From an uncultured Clostridia bacterium (lineage in GTDB: Bacteria; Bacillota; Clostridia; Oscillospirales; Acutalibacteraceae): a stretch of DNA of 64,000 nucleotides. Under the pieces are notes generated by a model. The model was given only the letters and a program-made list of their open reading frames with translations, did no database searches and was not told the DNA's origin. The position numbers and the translations under genes were made by a program. Numbering within the stretch: position 1 is the first letter of the stretch; every line of letters begins with the position of its first letter. Of the stretch, positions 5,794 to 16,381 are shown piece by piece. The stretch covers positions 9,667-73,666 of the forward strand of contig CANQGK010000003.1 in assembly GCA_947623175.1 (NCBI GenBank), in the 5' to 3' direction.

Positions 5794-6888
5794 TTATTTT
5801 ACCAATAAGGTTTTGATATTGTTCTTATTTCTTGCGTCGGCAAAGGCTTCGTTGATTTGATCTATCGTATATTTGTTGCCGAGCTTTAGAATAGTGGGGT
5901 GCAAATTGGGATTGGCGCAAAGGAAATCCAGATAAGTCTTTACGTCGGATACCGAATATTGCGAAGAACCGATGATATGCAGCGCCTTAAAGGTGATCAT
6001 CTGAGGTTGAATTTCAATTCCGCCGGAGTTGCTGTACTGACCGGGTACCAAATATACGCCGCGGTTGCGCAGAATATCCATGCCCTGTACCACCGCCTGC
6101 GGCGCGCCCGAAGCTTCAAAGCACAAATCCACGCCGAGACCGTCGTTTTCCTTTTGGAGCGCTTTGGTAATATCCGCCGCGCTTTCGCGGGTTAAATCGT
6201 AAATGCAGTCCGCGCCGAGCGCCTTCGCTTCTTCTTTGCCGTTGTCGCCCGCGGTAATTACACAGACCTTTTTAACCCCGATTTTTTTAAGATACATAAC
6301 GGCAAAACAGCCTACGGGGCCCAGACCCTGCACTACCGCGACGCCTATTTTCGAAAAATCCACTCCGGCAAGAGTCGCCAATTTGCAGGCATGGATAGCC
6401 GTAGGTCCGGGGCAGGCAAAAATCGTCGTCATAACCGGATCCAATTCATCCGGAATTTTAATCAAATTGGCAAGCGGCGTATAGTTTACCTCGGTATATC
6501 CGCCGTAAAGGTATGGCGCTTCCTCGATGCTTCTGCCGTTTGTCACCTGCATATTAACGCAGTTCGCGTCGTCGCCCGTTTTACAAAGCAGGCACTCTCC
6601 GCAGGGCACCGCAATATCGGCAAGCACCGCGTCGCCTGCCTTTAACCCGTATTTTTTGCCTTCCTTCTCATCCAAATCGGTAAGTCTCCCCACAAATTCA
6701 TGTCCGATTATCGAGGGCGCCTCCACCGCGAGCTTGCCCCTGTGCATATGAACGTCAGTTCCGCATATTCCGCTGGCGATAAGCTCTGAGCGCCCGTAGC
6801 CCTTCGGTGTTGCCGTAACCTCAAATTCGCGCACCTCAAAATCCTTTTCAGGGCCCATAAATACTGCTGCTTTTGCTTTCATCTTCAT
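5794..6888 (-). CDS. zinc-dependent alcohol dehydrogenase (MDR superfamily)
   Basis: 364 aa with GICGTDVH, GHEFVG, the structural-zinc Cys cluster CGECLLCKTGDDANC, and the GLGPVG Rossmann motif. Confidence 0.85.
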   Translation of the reverse strand: MKMKAKAAVFMGPEKDFEVREFEVTATPKGYGRSELIASGICGTDVHMHRGKLAVEAPSIIGHEFVGRLTDLDEKEGKKYGLKAGDAVLADIAVPCGECLLCKTGDDANCVNMQVTNGRSIEEAPYLYGGYTEVNYTPLANLIKIPDELDPVMTTIFACPGPTAIHACKLATLAGVDFSKIGVAVVQGLGPVGCFAVMYLKKIGVKKVCVITAGDNGKEEAKALGADCIYDLTRESAADITKALQKENDGLGVDLCFEASGAPQAVVQGMDILRNRGVYLVPGQYSNSGGIEIQPQMITFKALHIIGSSQYSVSDVKTYLDFLCANPNLHPTILKLGNKYTIDQINEAFADARNKNNIKTLLVK

Positions 6889-6893
6889 TTCTC

Positions 6894-7658
6894 CTATTCT
6901 ACTGTTGTATTAAAATATTTTGAAAATATCCGTTTGATTTCTTCAATTTCCTCCGCCGTCTGCGGGGTAACGTTTTCGTACTCATAGGTAAGTCCGAGCG
7001 CCTTGTATTTTCCGCTTCCCATTCGGTGAAACGGAATTAAGTCCACCGTATTTACCCCGAGAGCTTCAAGCGTTCGGCAGATATTGCGCAACTCGGACTT
7101 ATGCGTATTAAAATCCGGAATAAGCGGGATCCTTATACGCAGGTACATCCCGTCGCCGATGAGTTTTTTGATATTATTCCGAATAAGACTCAAATCGCCG
7201 CCTATACGGGCGTACTTTTCACTCTCGTCGGTCTTGTAATCAAAAAGATAACCGTCGACGTATGGGTTTACCTTTTTAAAGGCGTCGTAGGGCAGATTGC
7301 CCGCAGTGTCTATAAATACCGAAACGCCGTTTTGCTGCAATTTTTCGGCAAGCTCCTTAACGCCGTCGGCTTGAAGCATCGCTTCTCCCCCGCTTATCGT
7401 CGCCCCGCCGCCGCTTTCGTCATAAAAGCATTTATCGGCAAGCAGGTTTTCGACAATTTCCTCTACGGTGAGCCGTTTGCCGCAAATTTCCTCTTTATTG
7501 AGATTTTCGTAACGTAAAATCTGCGGCTGTGTCGACAAAGTTTCGGGATTGTGGCACCACGGACAGCGCAGGTTACAGCCCTTTAAAAAAACCGTTGTGC
7601 GAATACCCGGCCCGTCGCCGACCGAAAAATGCTGTATGTTGGATAGGTTAAGCTCCAT
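6894..7658 (-). CDS. glycyl-radical enzyme activating protein (radical SAM)
   Basis: 254 aa. The N-terminal GPGIRTTVFLKGCNLRCPWCHNPE contains the CX3CX2C motif. It lies directly downstream of a glycyl radical enzyme gene. Confidence 0.9.
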   Translation of the reverse strand: MELNLSNIQHFSVGDGPGIRTTVFLKGCNLRCPWCHNPETLSTQPQILRYENLNKEEICGKRLTVEEIVENLLADKCFYDESGGGATISGGEAMLQADGVKELAEKLQQNGVSVFIDTAGNLPYDAFKKVNPYVDGYLFDYKTDESEKYARIGGDLSLIRNNIKKLIGDGMYLRIRIPLIPDFNTHKSELRNICRTLEALGVNTVDLIPFHRMGSGKYKALGLTYEYENVTPQTAEEIEEIKRIFSKYFNTTVE

Positions 7659-7667
7659 ATCGCCACC

Positions 7668-9776
7668 TTACGACTGTTGGGTGCGCTCAAGGATATCAAG
7701 CTGAATCCCTTTTCTCAGCGTTACGTAAAAAGCGGAAAATCCCGAAACGCGCACAACTAAATTTTGGTATTTTTCCGGATGAGCCATAGCGTCTATAAGC
7801 ACCTCGCGGGAGGTTGCGTTTATCTGCATTTCCTGTCCGCCCTTTTTAAAGTATGTTTTTACGAGCGCCAGCAGCTTTTCGCGCTTGCCGTCCTTGAACA
7901 TGGAGGGTGAGAATTTCTGATTAACCACCGTTCCGCTTGCAACCTTTATATAGTCGGGCTTTGTAACGCTGTTTACGGTGCCTGTGGCGCCGCAGGTATC
8001 TTTACCGTAAGTGGGCGACGCCGCGTCGGACAAAGGCTCCCCGCGCTTTCTGCCGTCGGGGGTTGCGTTTATAACCGCTCCCGCGTAAATATTGTTTGTA
8101 TTCGCCGCTATGGCTACGTAAATTCCGCCGCCGTCATGCGTTTTATACCGTGTAAAAAGCGAGCTCAAATAATCCACGAACCAAACCGCGTATTTATCGA
8201 CGAAATTATCGTTGTTGCCGTATTTGGGAGCGGCAAGCAGCTTTGCGCGCAGTTCCTCGTACCCTTCGAAATTGCTGTTTAAAGCGTCACGAAGCTCCGA
8301 AAGCGTAGCCTCTTTATCGATAAATACCACTTTTTCTATCGCCGCCAACGAATCGCTCGTAGTGCCGACCCCCATAAGCGCCACGCCGTGTACCGACGGA
8401 TAAATACTGCCGCCGTCGTTTATATCAAGTCCGCGGCCTATGCAGTCATAGCAAAAGCAGGATAAAAACGGCTGCTTGTAATACTTGGGATTTAGGTTGT
8501 TGTTGCTGTTGTTAAACCAAGCGATGTAGGTATCTGCGCCATGCTTTAGCTGTTTTTCGAACCTGTCCATAAATTCGTCCATGGTTTTAATTTCGCTTAT
8601 ATCGCCGAGCGCCGGGCCTACCGAGCCGTTGACGGCGCTTACGCCGTTATTGAATAGGTAATCGAAAAATTTCGGCGTGTCGAACCGCCCGTCCGACCAG
8701 GGCGGCTGTTTGCCGGACATGAAATTTTCGATGCAGCCGACCATGGAGTAATTGTAAACGTCCTCGTCGGCGTAACCGTAACGCTTAAGCGCCGCGATAT
8801 TTACGCAGTCGTTCATAAGCGCGGGATAGCCTATTCCCGTACCTATAGACTTAAGGCAGGCGTCCAAAAATTCGTCCGGCGTGTCGGGCGTAATGCGTGC
8901 CGACAGGTTAGGCCCGGGTACGGCGCAATTGCGAACGGCGTCCAGAATGCAAAAGCTCAGCTCGTTTACCTGACATTTTTCGTTTACGTTCATGCCGCCT
9001 ATACATATATTGGCAACGTCCTTGTTTTCCAATTTTATAAAGCAGTTTTCGAGCAATTCTACCGCCCGCTCCTTGGTTAAGAGCCCCGCTTTGACGTCTT
9101 TTTCGTAAAAGGGATACAGGTATTGATCCATGCGTCCGAACGCCATAGCGTACCGGTCCTCCAAAATAAAGGCGGTATAACAGAGCCAAACGAGCTGGAG
9201 CGCTTCGGCGAAGCTCTGCGGCGCGCCGACGGCCAGCGCCTTACAGTTTTTCGCGATAAAATCGAGCCTTTCGTCGTCATATCCCGCTTCGCCCTTGTGA
9301 GCCTCGGCAGCCGCGGCGTAACGGCTTATCATTTGCAAAAAGCCCTCGAGGGTACGCTTCATCGCTTCCAGGGTTTCGACCTTTTCGGGATCGGACTTGT
9401 GCTTCTCGAGCGATAATTCGATCTCCTTTATCAAGCCGGGAACGCCGACTGCGAGGGTGTGCTCATAATTCGGAGTGTAGTGGTCGAGATTGGTCAGAAA
9501 ATCCCGCTCGCCGTACTGCTTGGTTATGGATTTTGCGTAGGAAAAAAGCGGCTCTTCTGCTTCCGTCCACAAGCAAAACTCGTTTCCCGCGATAATTTCA
9601 TGCGGGTATACGCGCGGTTCCGGCTCGGTAAAGAGTGAAAAAATCGCATTTGCCCGCGCCGCGGTTATGGGCGCCGCAGGATCTGCGGAATAGCCGAGAT
9701 AGCGAAAATAAAAAGACGCTCTTTTCCCCGGGGGCAGTATTGCGAGTTCTTTTCGTAAATTTTCGAACAGCTTCAT
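7668..9776 (-). CDS. glycyl radical enzyme (PFL-like superfamily, single-Cys GCxE eliminase/dehydratase type), substrate unknown
   Basis: The C-terminal VVRVSGFSAFYVTL is the glycine-radical motif. The Cys loop MVGCIENF has one Cys followed by Glu at +2. Start set at MKLFENL (about 702 aa); the tracked ORF extends to 9836. Confidence 0.85.
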   Translation of the reverse strand: MKLFENLRKELAILPPGKRASFYFRYLGYSADPAAPITAARANAIFSLFTEPEPRVYPHEIIAGNEFCLWTEAEEPLFSYAKSITKQYGERDFLTNLDHYTPNYEHTLAVGVPGLIKEIELSLEKHKSDPEKVETLEAMKRTLEGFLQMISRYAAAAEAHKGEAGYDDERLDFIAKNCKALAVGAPQSFAEALQLVWLCYTAFILEDRYAMAFGRMDQYLYPFYEKDVKAGLLTKERAVELLENCFIKLENKDVANICIGGMNVNEKCQVNELSFCILDAVRNCAVPGPNLSARITPDTPDEFLDACLKSIGTGIGYPALMNDCVNIAALKRYGYADEDVYNYSMVGCIENFMSGKQPPWSDGRFDTPKFFDYLFNNGVSAVNGSVGPALGDISEIKTMDEFMDRFEKQLKHGADTYIAWFNNSNNNLNPKYYKQPFLSCFCYDCIGRGLDINDGGSIYPSVHGVALMGVGTTSDSLAAIEKVVFIDKEATLSELRDALNSNFEGYEELRAKLLAAPKYGNNDNFVDKYAVWFVDYLSSLFTRYKTHDGGGIYVAIAANTNNIYAGAVINATPDGRKRGEPLSDAASPTYGKDTCGATGTVNSVTKPDYIKVASGTVVNQKFSPSMFKDGKREKLLALVKTYFKKGGQEMQINATSREVLIDAMAHPEKYQNLVVRVSGFSAFYVTLRKGIQLDILERTQQS

Positions 9777-9855
9777 AATATTCCCTTCTTTCTTAATTTC
9801 CGCTTTCAGTATATTCAAACCTCTGCAAAGTATCAATGCACAAGTTTAATAATTC

Positions 9856-9884
9856 TTGACAAAATTAATATAATAGATTATTAT
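9856..9884 (+). promoter_or_regulatory. putative sigma-A promoter of the second AraC gene
   Basis: TTGACA, 17-nt spacer, TATTAT, about 35 nt upstream of the 9919 start. Confidence 0.4.
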
Positions 9885-9918
9885 AAAACCATACCCACAC
9901 AAAAACGGAGGCGAAAAA

Positions 9919-10701
9919 ATGAAATACCTGACCGCGAAAATCCTACCCAAAATTGATTTTGCGCATACCTTCAGCGCCGATTCTTACCGGCTTAAAATAA
10001 AGCCGAAGCCGAATACGATCGAGATTGCTTATATTTCAAAGGGAAGCTTGCATTTTGATACCGACGGCGAGGATTTGCTTATAAAAAGCGGCAGTATTGT
10101 CCTCAACCCATATCTGCGACCGGTAATTTTCCATTCGGACGAATACCACGAGCATCACACCGTTTCGTTTTTAATGGAATTTTCCCTTTCCGACCTTCCC
10201 GAAAGCCCTTCCTCCGTTCCCCTGCCGAGCGTGATTTCATCGCCCAATGAGCGCTGTTACCGCCTTATCGACGATATTATACGGATCCACACCCTTAACG
10301 CCGACAGCGGACTCAAAACGGCGGGTATGTGCTTGCAGCTGCTTTATGAAATCGGCGCAAACCCCGACCGCCTAGACATAAGCCCTTATATAAAAAAGGT
10401 AAAAAACTACGTCTTTCGGCATCTTAACGAGCCTATCCGCCAGGCGGATATCGCAAACGCTCTCGGCATAACGCCGGAATATTTGTGCGACGTTTTTAAA
10501 AGATGCGAAAACACCACCGTTATGTCTTATGTAAACCGCGTAAAGCTTGACAAAATTAGGGCTGTTATGGAAAAGGAACACCTGCCGCTTTATAAAGCGT
10601 CCGAGCTGTACGGCTACGCCGATCCGAACTACGTAAGCCGCCTCTACAAAAAAATCTTCCACACCAATATTTCCGACCGCATAAAAAATAAAGACTCATA
10701 A
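9919..10701 (+). CDS. AraC family transcriptional regulator
   Basis: 260 aa with a C-terminal AraC HTH (IRQADIANALGITPEYLCDVFKR...ELYGYADPNYVSRLYKK). It is divergent from the GRE operon. Confidence 0.85.
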   Translation: MKYLTAKILPKIDFAHTFSADSYRLKIKPKPNTIEIAYISKGSLHFDTDGEDLLIKSGSIVLNPYLRPVIFHSDEYHEHHTVSFLMEFSLSDLPESPSSVPLPSVISSPNERCYRLIDDIIRIHTLNADSGLKTAGMCLQLLYEIGANPDRLDISPYIKKVKNYVFRHLNEPIRQADIANALGITPEYLCDVFKRCENTTVMSYVNRVKLDKIRAVMEKEHLPLYKASELYGYADPNYVSRLYKKIFHTNISDRIKNKDS

Positions 10702-10703
10702 AC

Positions 10704-10734
10704 GAACCCCCTCGGGATTTATCCGAGGGGGTTC
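10704..10734. terminator. bidirectional hairpin terminator
   Basis: gaaccccctcgg-N7-ccgagggggttc, a 12-bp perfect stem. It separates the AraC gene from the convergent TIR gene. Confidence 0.7.
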
Positions 10735-10757: not shown

Positions 10758-12629
10758 TCAAGAGTCCAGCGTAATCCACAAAGCGGGGCGAACAGCGTCA
10801 TAATTGATGCCGACACCGTTACCATCGAAACTGACCGAACCGGCACAGTCGACAAGAGCAGCAGCGAGCTGAGAATAGCCGGGCGACCGGAGCCACCACC
10901 AGCACGCAGCTTCGCCGCTTGCTGTTTTATAATCTTCTTTCGTATATGCTCCCTGCGACTTTGCATAAGCAGTCGGAGCACATCTGCGTGATTCGTCGTT
11001 TGTGAAATACTTTTCCGCTTCATTAATGCTTAATAAGAATATTTTATCTTTTGTTGCTCTTCCGGAATTTGTATCGTGTTCGGGATTCTTATCTGCACTG
11101 ACGTTTGTCGTCGTTATTTTTTTCTGTTCCTCGGCACTGAAAGCATTATTGAGAAACGTTCCGTTAAGCCATGTTCTGAGAGTGCATTTTTCCCAAGTTA
11201 CGTCAGTAAAAGATTTATTATACGGTTGGCAGTCAAGCGCGTATTTGCTGATTATAAGAGCTTTATTACCTTTTTTCTCAAGAATAAGCCATGCAATTTT
11301 TTCTTTTGCTTTTCCGGTCTCATCTTGATAGTATGAGCCAAAATACAGCGAGTTTTTATTTTGCTCGTTTATTATTTCTTTCATGCGAGCAATCTCTTTA
11401 GCCTTTCGCTCGCTTATGTTGGCAATGTATCCTTCAACTTCTGCTTTCAACTTTTCGTCACCGAAGCGGAGAATTTTTTTATAATTGTCCTTTTCTTCAA
11501 ATGAATTGCAGCAATCGGCTAATAGTTCGCGATAGCTTACACCTATTTCCGCCATCAGCTTGCCAAGGTAAGCTTCGGCGTTTTCGGGATCAAGGTCGAG
11601 CACTTTTTCGCAATATTCATCGGCTTCTTTCCATTTTTTGTCTTCCAAAAACAGAAAGGCGCGTTTCAGCAGCGGTGCGACGTTGGCGTTTCCGCCAATC
11701 ATTGCCGTCTCTTTTTCAACCACCTTCGGCATATCTAAAGGAACGATTTTCTTTATCCCACGAATCAAATCCTGCATAAACCCGAGCTTTGACATATCCT
11801 GTGCTTGCAGATGGGAAAATTCTTCCGGCAAATCATAAGGATCCATATCCTTATAAGCGGGGATAAGCATCTTCTTGGCACCGTTTTTAATAAGGGAGAG
11901 ATAACGGCTCCATTCGTTCTTAACCCAAACGGCATTAAAATACTCGGGTTTTGTACCAAGTGCAACCATTACCTTTGCGGAATTAAGTGCCGCAAATATG
12001 TACGGCTCGTAAGCCGTGCCGAGCTTGTCTTCGAGCGTAATGCGCGAGAAAAACACTTTAAAGCCCTCCTGAGTCAGCTGATGGTAAAGATCGTTTGCCA
12101 AAACCGAATCGGGTGTACGACGACCGTTATTATCGGTTTCTTTATAACAAATAAAAACGTCAAAGGGTTCTTCTTTTTGAGAAATTGCAAGAATGCCTTT
12201 TTGGATTTCGTTGATTGCATTTGCTTCTTTTTCGTAAATGGCTTTTTGATAAGAGTCCGCATTATTCAAAGCGGATTTGTAATTATCGTCATCAAAAATA
12301 GACGTAAACTGCGCCCGGTTGACGGTCGGTACACGTTTCCGTGTTGCGGGATCCTCCACGTATTCTATACCGTAACGGCATAATACCAGCGACCAATACG
12401 CCTCCGCGTCGGTATTATCCTCATTGAGTATCTGCTCATAAATACCCATCGCCTTATCAAATTCGTTATTACGGCGAAAATGGTTCGCCCTGTCGTACAT
12501 ATTTGCGCGCTTTTCGTCGTCAAGCTTGGGAAGTGTTTGTTGAGTTCCGCAGTATTCGCACTCGGCAACCGTTTCGTTATTTTGAATTTCTAATGCGGCA
12601 CCGCACATTTTGCATTTAAAGATTGACAT
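10758..12629 (-). CDS. zinc-ribbon / TPR-like / TIR domain protein with a C-terminal DUF6273-like domain
   Basis: 623 aa. The N-terminus has CKMCG...CEYCG (zinc ribbon). Residues ~155-295 (PFDVFICYKETD...KVFFSRITL...AVWVKNEWSRYL) look like a bacterial TIR_2 domain with the conserved W...E. A helical TPR-like segment follows (EADEYCEKVLDLDPENAEAYLGKL). The C-terminal domain ends WWWLRSPG...RPALWITL. Confidence 0.8.
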   Translation of the reverse strand: MSIFKCKMCGAALEIQNNETVAECEYCGTQQTLPKLDDEKRANMYDRANHFRRNNEFDKAMGIYEQILNEDNTDAEAYWSLVLCRYGIEYVEDPATRKRVPTVNRAQFTSIFDDDNYKSALNNADSYQKAIYEKEANAINEIQKGILAISQKEEPFDVFICYKETDNNGRRTPDSVLANDLYHQLTQEGFKVFFSRITLEDKLGTAYEPYIFAALNSAKVMVALGTKPEYFNAVWVKNEWSRYLSLIKNGAKKMLIPAYKDMDPYDLPEEFSHLQAQDMSKLGFMQDLIRGIKKIVPLDMPKVVEKETAMIGGNANVAPLLKRAFLFLEDKKWKEADEYCEKVLDLDPENAEAYLGKLMAEIGVSYRELLADCCNSFEEKDNYKKILRFGDEKLKAEVEGYIANISERKAKEIARMKEIINEQNKNSLYFGSYYQDETGKAKEKIAWLILEKKGNKALIISKYALDCQPYNKSFTDVTWEKCTLRTWLNGTFLNNAFSAEEQKKITTTNVSADKNPEHDTNSGRATKDKIFLLSINEAEKYFTNDESRRCAPTAYAKSQGAYTKEDYKTASGEAACWWWLRSPGYSQLAAALVDCAGSVSFDGNGVGINYDAVRPALWITLDS

Positions 12630-12635
12630 AATAGT

Positions 12636-13322
12636 TTATACTCCTTTTATCACGTTCCCTAAAAATTCAAAAGCTGTTTTGGCAAAGCCCCCAAACGGTA
12701 ATAACGAAATGACAGAAAAAATGGCTTCCTTGCCGGCACTCATCAAAAATTTTTTTAATCCTTCTTTTGTAAAATCGCCAAGGAACGACTGTATAGCATT
12801 ATCCGATTTAGCTATTGACTTTATATTCTTCTTAGTTTCGGGAGAAAAAATATCCGTTAACGTTTCGTCTTCAATGCATATTTCGGTAAAACAATCAAGC
12901 GGCAATCGAAGCAATTTCCTGTTTAGTGAACATTCATCATACCATCCTTTTTCTTCGATGAAATGACGAGCCTCATTTAAAACATTAATGTCTTGAATTA
13001 ATATTTTGACATAATGATCCGACTCGTCATATTTTGCATTTTTTACCGATTCTGCAAATGAAATTTTCCAATCAAAACCTTTATGTGGATATTTCAGTTC
13101 CTTTCGCTCTTTCAGCGCTCTTATTCTTGACTGTGTTATGCCCAATTGCTTTGATAAAGCGTAATCGTCATACGGTTCTCCTACTTTAATACAATGCTCA
13201 ATGTATTCTGAAAAAAGTAAAACCTCTAAATCATTTTTGGATGTGCTCCCAAAATTTTGGCAGAAGTATAATTCCGATATTTTATCGAAACAAGACTGCT
13301 TTTCTTCATTTGAAAAATCCAT
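12636..13322 (-). CDS. hypothetical protein (possible HTH; hydrophobic/amphipathic C-terminal tail)
   Basis: 228 aa with no family I recognise. YALSKQLGITQSRIRALKERK resembles an HTH. The C-terminus is AIFSVISLLPFGGFAKTAFEFLGNVIKGV. Its stop lies 6 nt before the TIR gene start. Confidence 0.55.
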   Translation of the reverse strand: MDFSNEEKQSCFDKISELYFCQNFGSTSKNDLEVLLFSEYIEHCIKVGEPYDDYALSKQLGITQSRIRALKERKELKYPHKGFDWKISFAESVKNAKYDESDHYVKILIQDINVLNEARHFIEEKGWYDECSLNRKLLRLPLDCFTEICIEDETLTDIFSPETKKNIKSIAKSDNAIQSFLGDFTKEGLKKFLMSAGKEAIFSVISLLPFGGFAKTAFEFLGNVIKGV

Positions 13323-13333
13323 AGTAATCCACC

Positions 13334-14035
13334 TTACTTTAGTAGTCTACACTTCTTATTCCTATCCTCAATCAGTATAATCAACTCGTTCGCCGATTTT
13401 TTGGTATTATCCGCGTTGTTTGCGTTTACGGCGGCGGCAAGCTCGTTGATTTTCAAAGTGATTTGTGCTTCTTGCGCGGCTAATGCCGCATTGCTCATCG
13501 GATCTGAATATCTGACCGCTTCGTATACCTTTTTGCATTCGTTTTTAATCTCTTCGGTTTGTGCTCTCGCAATCAAGCCTTCCGAATCAACGGTTAAAGA
13601 TTTGATGAAAAAAGTCTGCGCTTTTGTTTTATCGTCAACCGCGGACACAACCTCCGCCGCCGCTTTGGCTTTTATAACCGCGATTGCGTTAAAGGCAAGG
13701 ATTATAAGGCAGACGATTATTCCTATCCAATTCGGCAAATTGGGTATTGCCATGCAAATCGCGCCGAATATAACGGTCAGAATAAGCCCCGTATAGCTTA
13801 TTTTAATAAGCGGTAAATTGTAAAACAGCTTTTGTAAATTTTCGGCTTTAAATGCGATAAACGCGCAGTAAAGCTGACCTATAAAGGCAAGGGTGATAAA
13901 TACGTAACCCGACCAAAAAGCCCCGCCGAATTTGGTCAAACCCGCCGATTCGTTCGGAGTTACAAAACAGATAATATTGAAAAGGGCAAAAAGAATTACC
14001 CAAGCGGCAAAGTATGATTTAAACGTCTTTTTCAT
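13334..14035 (-). CDS. membrane protein (about 4 TM helices plus a C-terminal coiled-coil)
   Basis: 233 aa. There are four hydrophobic stretches in the first ~125 aa, then an Ala/Glu/Lys-rich helical tail. It lies 16 nt downstream of the SPFH gene and 11 nt upstream of the next gene. Confidence 0.6.
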   Translation of the reverse strand: MKKTFKSYFAAWVILFALFNIICFVTPNESAGLTKFGGAFWSGYVFITLAFIGQLYCAFIAFKAENLQKLFYNLPLIKISYTGLILTVIFGAICMAIPNLPNWIGIIVCLIILAFNAIAVIKAKAAAEVVSAVDDKTKAQTFFIKSLTVDSEGLIARAQTEEIKNECKKVYEAVRYSDPMSNAALAAQEAQITLKINELAAAVNANNADNTKKSANELIILIEDRNKKCRLLK

Positions 14036-14051: not shown

Positions 14052-15455
14052 TTATAGTTTTTCACCGCACTCGAGGCAGAACTTGGCTCCGCTCGGAAGC
14101 TCCGCACCGCATTTCGCGCATTTCGCAATAAGCGGCGCGCCGCACTCCATACAGAACTTGCCTTTGTTGGTTTTCTTACCGCAAGCGGGGCAAATAATTT
14201 CGTTTTCGTTCGGCAATTCTATTTTGGCGCCGCATTCGAGGCAGAAATTTGAATTTTCCGGAACTTCGCTGTTACAGTTAGGACACTTGATTTTAGCGGT
14301 TTGTTGAGGACTGTCATTCGCGGGCATAGTACCGAAGCCCTTGAACATTTCGCCCATTTGTCCGCTTACGGCGCCGGCGGCAGCCATACCGACGCCGAGA
14401 CCTATCATATCGCCGGCAACTCCGCCGCCCGAGCCGCTTATGTTCATATTACCGATACCTTCCGCATAGGCTTTTTGAACTTCGGCTTGAATTACGTCCT
14501 TTTCGTTATAGCCCTTTGCCCGCATTACTTCCGCTTCCGCAAAGCCGGACATTTTTGCAGCCTGAGCCTCTGTCTGCGCACGGATAAGCTCTCTTTCGGC
14601 TTCTCGGCGGGCTTTTTCGGTAACGGTGGTTTCCTGCTCGAGAATCGCCTGTCGCTCTGCGGCGGTAATACTCGCCTGCGATTCCGCCATTGCCGTCTTT
14701 ATGGTTGTTTCCGCTTCGACCATCTTCTTTTGAAGAGAGATCGTATGTAATTCACGAATCCGCTTAAAGTTGGGATCGCTTTCGGGCAAAACAACGGTAT
14801 TCACATAAAACTCGGGAATTGTAAGTCCGTATTCCTCGAAACCGGGAATAATACTTCTTCTCAAAACGTCGGACAATAAGCCGAGACTTTCATCCACTTC
14901 AAGAATATTTATGTTTTGCGACTTAATACAGCTTGAAAGGTTGGTTTTGACGGCGGTAGAAATCAAAGGACGGAAAGAAGCGGATAAAGATTTGGTAAAA
15001 CCGCCGCTTCTGTCATCCCAAGCAATGCCGTTCATCGTTCCTACGATTTTAACAAGCAGCTTGCGGGGATCCGAAACCATTAGGTTCATTTCACCCGAAG
15101 CGCCTATTTCAAGCGGAACTCCGAAGGTGGGATCGATAAATCTTACCTTGCTGTCGGTACCCCATTTTATAGCCATCTGAACGGTTTTATTTATAAAATA
15201 AACCTCGCAATGAAACGGCGTATCACCGCCGGTAGTGCGATTAAGCGCTTTACCGATTTTCGGTATGTTCTGTGTTTCAAGGGTATATCGCCCCGGCCCG
15301 AACAAATCCAAAGCCTGACCGTTCATAAAAAAGATTGCTTCCTGCGACTCATGAACGATTAACTGCGTGGTCGTATTAAAGTCCTCGCACGGATGTTTCC
15401 ATATAAATGTGCTGTTATCACCCTCGTATTTAATTATCTGTGCTATTTCTGCCAT
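14052..15455 (-). CDS. SPFH/band-7 domain protein with three C-terminal zinc ribbons (COG4260 / B. subtilis YdjI-like)
   Basis: 467 aa. The N-terminus IIKYEGDNSTFIWKHPCEDFNTTTQLIVHESQEAIFFMNGQ is typical of YdjI-type SPFH proteins. It continues with an EA-rich coiled coil, a Gly-rich segment, then CPNC...CLECG, CPACG...CMECG and CAKCG...CLECG. There is a GGAGG RBS. Confidence 0.8.
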   Translation of the reverse strand: MAEIAQIIKYEGDNSTFIWKHPCEDFNTTTQLIVHESQEAIFFMNGQALDLFGPGRYTLETQNIPKIGKALNRTTGGDTPFHCEVYFINKTVQMAIKWGTDSKVRFIDPTFGVPLEIGASGEMNLMVSDPRKLLVKIVGTMNGIAWDDRSGGFTKSLSASFRPLISTAVKTNLSSCIKSQNINILEVDESLGLLSDVLRRSIIPGFEEYGLTIPEFYVNTVVLPESDPNFKRIRELHTISLQKKMVEAETTIKTAMAESQASITAAERQAILEQETTVTEKARREAERELIRAQTEAQAAKMSGFAEAEVMRAKGYNEKDVIQAEVQKAYAEGIGNMNISGSGGGVAGDMIGLGVGMAAAGAVSGQMGEMFKGFGTMPANDSPQQTAKIKCPNCNSEVPENSNFCLECGAKIELPNENEIICPACGKKTNKGKFCMECGAPLIAKCAKCGAELPSGAKFCLECGEKL

Positions 15456-15476: not shown

Positions 15477-15502
15477 GTATCAAAAGGTGTACTTTTTGAG
15501 AA
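15477..15502. repeat. hix-like recombination site, left (26 bp: 12-nt half-site, GT core, 12-nt half-site)
   Basis: GTATCAAAAGGT-GT-ACTTTTTGAGAA. Positions 15478-15499 are the perfect reverse complement of 15616-15637. Confidence 0.7.
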
Positions 15503-15625
15503 AATGCGGATTTTGACTTTTTAATGGGGCTTTTTTACAAATTTCTGTTAATAAACGGCGAAATATGTTGATTTTTCACTATTTATATGATATAATCCAA
15601 TTTATATAAGAGCTATCAAAAAGTA
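15490..15625. promoter_or_regulatory. putative invertible promoter segment (inverton), about 136 bp between the two crossover cores
   Basis: It is bounded by inverted 26-bp hix-like sites and sits adjacent to a serine invertase gene. It carries a strong promoter and is the only DNA upstream of the SPFH-TIR operon. Confidence 0.6.
15568..15596 (+). promoter_or_regulatory. near-consensus sigma-A promoter with extended -10, currently pointing away from the operon
   Basis: TTGATT (15568-73), 17-nt spacer ending in TGa, then TATAAT (15591-96). It is on the plus strand, so it reads towards the 3' end of the recombinase gene. Confidence 0.6.
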
Positions 15626-15638
15626 CACCTTTTGATAG
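15613..15638. repeat. hix-like recombination site, right (26 bp)
   Basis: CTATCAAAAAGT-AC-ACCTTTTGATAG. It is embedded in a 34-nt palindrome (15609-15642, 13-bp arms) that overlaps the recombinase stop codon. Confidence 0.7.
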
Positions 15639-15640
15639 CT

Positions 15641-16381
<741 letters not shown>

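Follow-up and report, generated by a model that had tools for sequence, protein, structure and literature searches.

We analysed a window of 64,000 nt from an uncultured Clostridia bacterium of the Acutalibacteraceae (assembly GCA_947623175.1, contig CANQGK010000003.1, positions 9,667 to 73,666 of the forward strand), which at 10758..12629 on the minus strand carries an intact, genuine open reading frame (ORF), as judged from the ORF list and its translation. The encoded protein of 623 amino acids, P0001, is probably, though well short of certainly, a member of a receptor-like family of Clostridia TIR proteins, combining a putative NAD+-cleaving TIR domain with a lectin-like DUF6273 domain whose tip is of the type written by diversity-generating retroelements (DGRs) and is now fixed, and produced from an operon together with an SPFH protein and a protein with four transmembrane (TM) helices (4TM). 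The identity and anatomy of P0001 are secure. An earlier description made from the sequence alone (hereafter the original prediction) placed a TIR protein at these coordinates, which holds, with the strand now given as minus.

Domain architecture of P0001

Based on the ORF list, Pfam, and an AlphaFold2 model built from a 54-sequence alignment (mean pLDDT 91.2), P0001 consists of a zinc ribbon, a TPR-like domain, a TIR domain, a further TPR region, a long helix, and a DUF6273 domain, with domain matches far above chance; all coordinates below are on the minus strand unless stated otherwise. The N-terminal domain (residues 1-152; 12174..12629), supported by near-invariant residues and by a separate AlphaFold2 model (pLDDT 90.2), combines the four-Cys zinc ribbon and three TPR-like helices with a beta-hairpin conserved as GIEYVxDP...PTxxR and with a long helix. 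The ribbon (C6, C9, C24, and C27; 12549-12614) has CKMC at residues 6-9 and CEYC at residues 24-27, giving the pattern C6-x2-C9-x14-C24-x2-C27; it had been predicted as such except for the spacer, which is 14 residues and not 13. All four cysteines are invariant or nearly so across the family, and the Pfam signal for the ribbon is weak in P0001. Modelled alone, the N-terminal domain gave generic TPR matches only (Z ≤ 8.8), and no specific function could be assigned to it. The proposal that the zinc ribbon acts as a sensor is therefore unsupported, the ribbon being invariant, unlike a variable sensor.

The TIR domain (residues 155-296; 11742..12167; Pfam TIR_2, Foldseek, and VIA) is followed by a second TPR-like helical region (residues 317-372; 11514..11681), supported by helices in the model and by Pfam matches to TPR_19, TPR_2, and TPR_1 at residues 320-356. 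This agrees with the TPR-like segment predicted at residues ~320-370; Pfam TPR families also match residues 45-79, which the original prediction did not include. Long helices (residues 381-424; 11358..11489) then end at the point where relatives have a coiled coil and a TM helix, as seen from the model, the sequences of relatives, and BLASTP against P0009, a paralogue encoded in the same genome. The C-terminus is formed by the lectin-like DUF6273 domain (residues 427-623; 10761..11351; Pfam, VIA, and BFVD), and the Pfam match over residues 455-620 (E 2.9e-32) bears out the expectation that the last ~190 residues are of the DUF6273 type. A Kyte-Doolittle hydropathy scan of P0001 revealed no hydrophobic TM-like segment.

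A DGR-type variable region at the tip of DUF6273

What had been missed about the role of DUF6273 is that its last ~35 residues form a DGR-type variable region, which codon tables and comparison with the paralogue and with the template repeat of metagenome locus L055 place at 10780..10905, with the variable codons at 10800-10877. The region keeps the DGR scaffold of relatives, and its invariant flanks are identical to the template repeat of L055 and L075, including the GC-rich CGCCCCGC at the 3' end. Compared with P0009, the variable region has 21 mismatches in 31 codons, 12 in the first and 9 in the second base of a codon but none in the third, whereas in the adjacent 420 nt of DUF6273 25 of the 57 mismatches are at codon position 3; the chance of finding 0 of 21 at position 3 is 0.56^21, or ~5e-6. 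Compared with the L055 template repeat, 23 of 30 mismatches lie at adenines, and A makes up 27% of the template. On this pattern of substitutions, the tip of the window gene reads as the product of a DGR-type process.

The source genome, which is 94% complete in 54 contigs, yielded no RVT_1 match, no tblastn match with the reverse transcriptase (RT) or Avd of a relative, and no copy of the variable-region repeat beyond those in the window gene and P0009; no direct repeat of the variable region was found within the window either. Loss of RT, Avd, and template from this genome is likely, and, since all three are lacking, the tip seems to be frozen rather than currently rewritten.

Among the sequencing runs listed as containing this sequence none is of RNA; the matches are contigs of the source sample, one rabbit-gut sample, and are fragmented over the window gene. 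A contig in runs X3 and X4 of this gut metagenome joins the unique 3' flank of the gene to 68 other letters replacing 10804-10868, and in run X2 a loose end at the same place reads the variable region of P0009. The 68 letters are the sole alternative variable region seen in these contigs and are themselves the variable region of P0009. Either the assembly produced a chimera across the 3' end that both genes have in common, or the two genes did exchange variable regions.

DGR cassettes in relatives and the fold of DUF6273

Hypervariability was evident in a set of 70 near-identical homologues of 829 amino acids, in which residues 1-780 average 0.016 bits of entropy per site and the last 49 average 1.015. 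Here, 16 hypervariable positions sit on the fixed scaffold WWWLRSPG-xx-Q-xx-AA-x-V-xxx-GSV-xxx-G-xx-V-xxxx-DAVRPALW, and 1113 of the 1120 residues at these positions are within the 15 amino acids reachable from AAY codons via adenine changes. Scanning genomes for the predicted template with a degenerate pattern gave six loci. At four of them the mismatches between template and variable region lie at template adenines in 21/23, 19/19, 25/25, and 16/17 cases, and in all four an RT gene adjoins the pair, the 16/17 pair being beside a TIR-DUF6273 gene; Pfam confirmed RVT_1 for the RTs of L038, L042 (part of the L053 contig), and L041. TIR-DUF6273 genes are present at a minimum of two and probably three of the six loci, and L041 and L053 show the full order SPFH, 4TM, TIR/TM/DUF6273, bAvd, template repeat, and RT on one strand, with the bAvd of L041 confirmed by Pfam. 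Five further TIR-DUF6273 genes with adjacent templates were found in metagenomes, with mismatches at adenines in 14/14, 19/19, 25/26, 18/18, and 17/19 cases.

In the L041 contig (DAONQC010000005.1), an assembly gap of 100 N lies exactly at the variable region of the TIR-DUF6273 gene, which has a tyrosine integrase and a complete, undamaged Avd-template-RT cassette as neighbours; the assembly probably failed at this point because the population was heterogeneous. RT genes were also present in the related genomes G024, G037, and G080. These are on other contigs, with no template matching the TIR variable region, and we do not count them as evidence of a DGR link.

DUF6273 is similar to C-type lectins (PMC10743442), and DUF6273 domains have been published as lectin-fold DGR targets in gut phages (PMC10743442, PMC11792537, bioRxiv 10.1101/2024.10.15.618418). 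The DUF6273 domain of P0001 superimposes on the N-terminal DUF6273 domain of the T. ramosa IgA peptidase (9qa6; VIA Z 17.1; root-mean-square deviation (rmsd) 2.6 Å over 170 residues), and it is from this match together with the published similarity (PMC10743442) that we take the lectin fold. Its top BFVD matches are phage DUF6273 proteins. The presence of a DGR-type variable region supports a binding domain, and the original prediction that the C-terminal domain is a sensor or binding module is plausible.

The TIR domain and its putative catalytic Glu

A TIR fold had been predicted for residues ~155-295, and all comparisons agree with this. Pfam TIR_2 (PF13676) matches residues 158-281 (E 6e-12; 46.5 bits against a cut-off of 28), and a Foldseek search of the PDB with the P0001 model recovered the SARM1 TIR (24-26% identity; TM-score 0.66-0.69) as well as AbTir, BtTir, RUN1, RPV1, and Roq1. 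In VIA-align comparisons using model residues 154-300, the TIR matched SPARTA TIR-APAZ (Z 16.8; rmsd 2.5 Å over 132 residues), L6 (Z 16.2), RUN1 (Z 15.0), SARM1 (Z 14.6; residues 155-295 against 561-700), and AbTir (Z 14.0).

The putative catalytic Glu239 (codon 11913..11915), read off within the stretch AVWVKNEWSRYL starting at residue 233, is part of W235-V-K-N-E239. HMMER residue-level alignments, made with P0001 as a single sequence and with a 20-sequence TIR profile, set this motif opposite W-C-L-D-E of AtTIR (3jrn) and RPV1 (5ku7), W-P-A-R-E of Brucella TcpB/BtpA (4lzp/4lqc), W-T-E-Y-E of BtTir (7uxr), and W-C-Q-Y-E of TLR15/TLR2, the TIR of which (7ylf) is the best PDB sequence match of the TIR profile (E 8.5e-7). 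The aligned Glu in the plant and Brucella TIRs is what we take to be the published catalytic residue. Nearly all of the 155 family members sampled contain WV[KR]NEW, and the family alignment shows no substitution at E239. The predicted placing of Glu239 at the catalytic position is upheld. The TIR of P0001 is thus catalytically plausible, with the residues expected of an NAD+-cleaving TIR.

A Thoeris-type signalling TIR was considered and rejected: matches to ThsB in PADLOC (E 0.011; 12.8 bits) and to ThcB4 in NCBIfam (26 bits against a cut-off of 220) are below threshold, and there is no ThsA-like partner.

A family with exchangeable C-terminal domains

A homology search returned at least 8000 homologues of P0001, and an exhaustive search of 50%-identity representatives gave 9,489 proteins matching at E ≤ 1e-30, a number that includes DUF6273-only proteins. 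Its members abound in Clostridia from gut, rumen, and digesters. The same N-terminal module is present in more than 150 clusters (50% identity) at E < 1e-198, and nearly all of the best 150 matches (all at E < 1e-198) cover the first ~410 residues, that is zinc ribbon, TPR, TIR, and TPR, with ~45-81% identity overall. Far from being unusual, as originally proposed, the fusion is therefore among the commonest TIR architectures in gut Clostridia.

One TM helix follows the N-terminal module, before the C-terminal domain, in ~110 of 155 sampled relatives (~70%); 34 of the 155 have none. In P0009, P0047, P0041, P0008, and P0013, a KKRKK-hydrophobic-helix motif lies between the coiled coil and DUF6273. 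In most relatives the single TM helix places DUF6273 outside the cell, giving the receptor-like, membrane-spanning topology that is the family norm and that P0001 lacks. Because the TM and coiled-coil segment is absent, the binding domain of P0001 would be inside the cell. The original prediction of a cytoplasmic protein without TM helix therefore stands for P0001 itself, although as an exception in its family and next to a TM-bearing paralogue. TM-less architectures arise again in other lineages (P0010, P0244, P0139, P0158, and locus L059), and cytoplasmic DUF6273 is therefore an established, recurrent variant and not necessarily damage.

P0160, P0178, P0209, P0155, and P0191 have the same N-terminal TIR module and TM helix followed by other domains. 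In such members, the domains after the TM helix are BspA-type leucine-rich repeats (LRRs), Listeria-Bacteroides repeats (Flg_new), WG repeats, TPR arrays, or polytopic membrane domains. The exchange of DUF6273 for LRR, Flg_new, WG, or TPR fits a common signalling module with interchangeable binding domains, and the N-terminal module is the constant cytoplasmic part of a receptor-like family of this kind. The TIR, TM, and LRR layout of some members recalls Toll-like receptors.

A membrane-spanning paralogue in the same genome

The second TIR-DUF6273 copy of this genome, P0009 (728 amino acids; contig C26:29777-31963, plus strand; locus L025:11778-13964), has a TM helix, and its gene stands alone between rimP-nusA-infB and a RadC gene. 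P0001 and P0009 are nearly identical over residues 1-294 (BLASTP), where only 1 of 13 differing codons is non-synonymous and one stretch of 600 nt is 100% identical. Because of this identical stretch, recent recombination between the two genes is implied, and gene conversion is suggested by the same comparison. With respect to P0009, P0001 lacks ~107 residues comprising coiled coil, TM helix, and linker, with the junction at residues 415-427 (BLASTP).

A conserved operon with SPFH and 4TM partners

The window gene closes an SPFH/4TM/TIR operon that is conserved, and its product is not a stand-alone protein. The order SPFH-4TM-TIR is conserved in other genera, and the window has it on the same strand (14052-15455, 13334-14035, and 10758-12629). 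The SPFH gene (14052..15455) encodes a soluble Band_7_1 protein (Pfam E 1.6e-37) with C-terminal zinc ribbons (Zn_Ribbon_1 and DZR), and its conserved partner (13334..14035), identified by translation and synteny, is a 4TM protein with a coiled-coil tail. Of 80 metagenome loci, 69 have a 4TM gene adjoining the TIR gene and 58 have an SPFH gene; the 4TM neighbour also occurs in six of the seven related genomes examined. It is common in these loci for two or three TIR paralogues to be arranged in tandem. At L059, L082, L110, and L121, two to three TIR-receptor paralogues follow a single SPFH-4TM pair, which suggests sets of alternative receptors on one shared scaffold.

A small gene between the 4TM and TIR genes (12636..13322) encodes a protein of 228 amino acids with no family assignment and an HTH-like character, and ends 6 nt before the TIR start codon. 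Homologues occupy the same position in five of the 80 metagenome loci (L055, L070, L076, L086, and L132), and L055 holds both this gene and a DGR cassette. Upstream of the operon lies a gene for a small serine recombinase (15641..16276; Resolvase domain, Pfam E 3.8e-28), and a repeat search found perfect 22-nt inverted repeats (15478-15499 and 15616-15637; span 15478..15637, no strand assigned) flanking a 116-nt segment between this gene and the operon, which is a candidate invertible promoter segment. The same recombinase precedes the operon in six of the 80 metagenome loci; in one more locus it lies downstream, on the other strand. Repeats and recombinase are consistent with phase-variable expression of the operon.

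On the other side, direct reading shows a GC-rich hairpin (10704..10734, no strand assigned) between the convergent TIR and AraC genes, a possible bidirectional terminator that was not called in a terminator scan. Directly downstream of the TIR gene, 5794-10701 of the window holds genes for a glycyl-radical enzyme, its activase, a zinc alcohol dehydrogenase, and two AraC regulators, which appear unrelated to the TIR gene.

Discussion

A ligand sensor wired to a TIR NADase is the likely mechanism suggested by the sequence of P0001. The operon, behind its candidate invertible promoter, would provide the TIR protein together with the soluble SPFH scaffold and the 4TM protein. DUF6273 would serve as a lectin-like ligand-binding domain, located inside the cell in the case of P0001. 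Binding of ligand at the variable tip would cluster the TIR protein, probably on the SPFH/4TM platform; clustering would allow the TIR domains to assemble and switch on cleavage of NAD+, leading either to NAD+ depletion or to a nucleotide signal, and cells might then stop growing or mount a stress or defence response.

Several observations weigh against this reading. An adjacent DGR is present in 4 of the 48 metagenome loci with at least 1.5 kb of downstream sequence, making hypermutation the exception in the family, and the source genome has neither RT, Avd, nor template repeat. Without a TM helix, the receptor topology does not apply to P0001, which could be a non-functional recombinant. The NADase activity is predicted from alignment. 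Between genera the N-terminal module keeps 70-80% identity, a degree of conservation that is unusual in defence proteins, and no operon protein was assigned to a known defence family by PADLOC or NCBIfam. Finally, the SPFH partner resembles B. subtilis YdjI/SamI, a membrane-stress protein (PMC8581546), pointing to envelope housekeeping rather than immunity.

This last resemblance is the starting point for an explanation that we regard as unlikely, namely that SPFH, 4TM, and TIR form a YdjGHI/SamGHI-like membrane-stress platform for envelope surveillance and not immunity, in which the TIR is mainly an oligomerisation or adaptor module or a regulated metabolic switch and the lectin binds either the wall of the cell itself or glycans from host or environment. 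YdjI/SamI is described with the same build as the window protein P0004: both are soluble SPFH proteins of the Band_7_1 type and combine a low-complexity stretch with zinc ribbons at the C-terminus (PMC8581546). In B. subtilis, membrane partners recruit YdjI/SamI (PMC13713150). The extreme conservation of the N-terminal module, the absence of a match to known defence families, and the placement of paralogue P0009 beside rimP-nusA-infB, not in a defence island, fit as well. Nevertheless, the invariant W-x3-E with its Glu at the catalytic position argues for enzymatic use, hypermutation by DGRs and exchangeable LRR or lectin domains are typical of varying foreign ligands, a candidate invertible promoter suits costly or surface-exposed functions, and the operon has no pspA gene. 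The comparison with PspA-YdjGHI (SamGHI) extends to an SPFH protein of the soluble Band_7_1 type that has a zinc finger at its C-terminus and is encoded beside membrane proteins which could recruit it, and it ends at PspA, which is missing from the window operon, and at the TIR domain, of which the available parts of the B. subtilis reports make no mention (PMC8581546, PMC13713150). A further possibility, that the family is a bacterial innate-immune receptor system whose exchangeable binding domains sense phage or other foreign ligands and trigger the TIR NADase on the SPFH platform under phase-variable expression, is in our view doubtful and a minority possibility, the anti-phage role being putative.

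It is more doubtful still that P0001 is a decaying or neutral recombinant in which recombination with the paralogue removed coiled coil and TM, the DGR was lost, and receptor function is gone. The ~107 residues missing relative to P0009, the identical 600-nt tract with its sign of recent recombination, the lack of a DGR in the source genome, and the sample contigs that join the P0009 variable region to the flank of the window gene would all be explained; however, the ORF is intact and retains every near-invariant family residue, the gene is still translationally coupled in its operon, 6 nt after the upstream gene, and TM-less forms recur independently (see above). The original prediction itself, an unusual fusion acting as a stand-alone cytoplasmic TIR NADase with zinc ribbon and DUF6273 as sensor or partner-binding modules, we consider very improbable. 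The TIR fold, the position of the Glu, the absence of a TM helix from P0001, and DUF6273 as a binding domain were all borne out, but the frequency of the fusion and the place of the gene in a conserved operon refute its "unusual" and "stand-alone" parts, and the family is mostly membrane-spanning, with an invariant zinc ribbon that is not sensor-like.

Placed beside the NAD+-cleaving TIRs (SARM1, AbTir, BtTir, TcpB/BtpA, RUN1/RPV1/L6, and SPARTA TIR-APAZ), P0001 shares the fold (Z 14-17), the W-x3-E with Glu at the catalytic position, and the beta-A motif FDVFICYKETD; it differs in that identity is merely 15-26%, its activity is a prediction, and its flanks (zinc ribbon and TPR before the TIR, TPR after it) are absent from those proteins. 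With the phage DUF6273 targets of DGRs the family has in common a variable region at the C-terminal end of DUF6273, an Asn-rich template (AAY codons), adenine-specific mismatches, and, in relatives, Avd, template repeat, and RT beside the target. Here, however, the target is a cellular protein with a cytoplasmic TIR and SPFH/4TM partners and not a phage tail or decoration protein, the source genome of P0001 has no RT or template repeat, and P0001, having neither TM helix nor signal peptide, would hold its lectin domain inside the cell. Membrane-anchored cellular DGR targets have been described in general (PMC8144416).

DGR-diversified C-type lectin (CLec) proteins, proposed as putative antigen sensors, are fused or linked to STAND NTPases, CHAT, and TIR in multicellular bacteria (PMC10907252; PMC7159879). 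Together with the phage DUF6273 targets, they are the nearest published systems. Like the P0001 family, these sensors of multicellular bacteria couple a hypervariable lectin-fold sensor to a TIR effector domain, and in both groups the variable domain occurs in cytoplasmic as well as extracytoplasmic positions. The P0001 family, by contrast, has SPFH and 4TM partners in place of STAND, MoxR, and vWA, lives in unicellular gut and digester Clostridia, uses DUF6273 and not a lectin of the FGE-sulfatase type, and has a DGR in a minority of loci. As for the animal Toll-like and IL-1 receptors, the family at large resembles them in having a binding domain outside (LRR in some members), one TM helix, and TIR inside; the order is reversed, with the TIR N-terminal, no adaptor proteins are known for the family, and P0001 has no TM helix. 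They are alike in architecture and not through common descent of the entire protein.

We found no paper on this architecture, nor any that links DGR to TIR in Lachnospiraceae or DGR to SPFH in such an arrangement, and a very large gut-Clostridia family joining TIR to a lectin-like domain is apparently undescribed. New in the window are the TM-less form, the TM-bearing paralogue with its 600-nt identical tract, and codon-position evidence of a DGR-written tip despite the absence of the DGR. The presence of TM-less and TM-bearing paralogues in one genome offers a natural comparison of sensing inside versus outside the cell.

The domain fusion is common, yet the family itself merits study. From bacteria to humans, immune signalling has TIR domains as its common enzymatic core, and DGRs are, to our knowledge, the only prokaryotic system for targeted protein hypermutation; here a DGR-type variable domain and a TIR are joined in one polypeptide and encoded in an operon with a flotillin-like scaffold. 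If the innate-immune reading were true, the family would represent the Toll-like receptors of prokaryotes, equipped with a binding site that can be programmed and sensing outside the cell or, in TM-less forms such as P0001, inside it. If the TIR is active and gated by ligand, the family would make receptors whose binding site can be rewritten accessible to study in a tractable model, and would give a function to thousands of microbiome genes annotated as "DUF6273 domain-containing".

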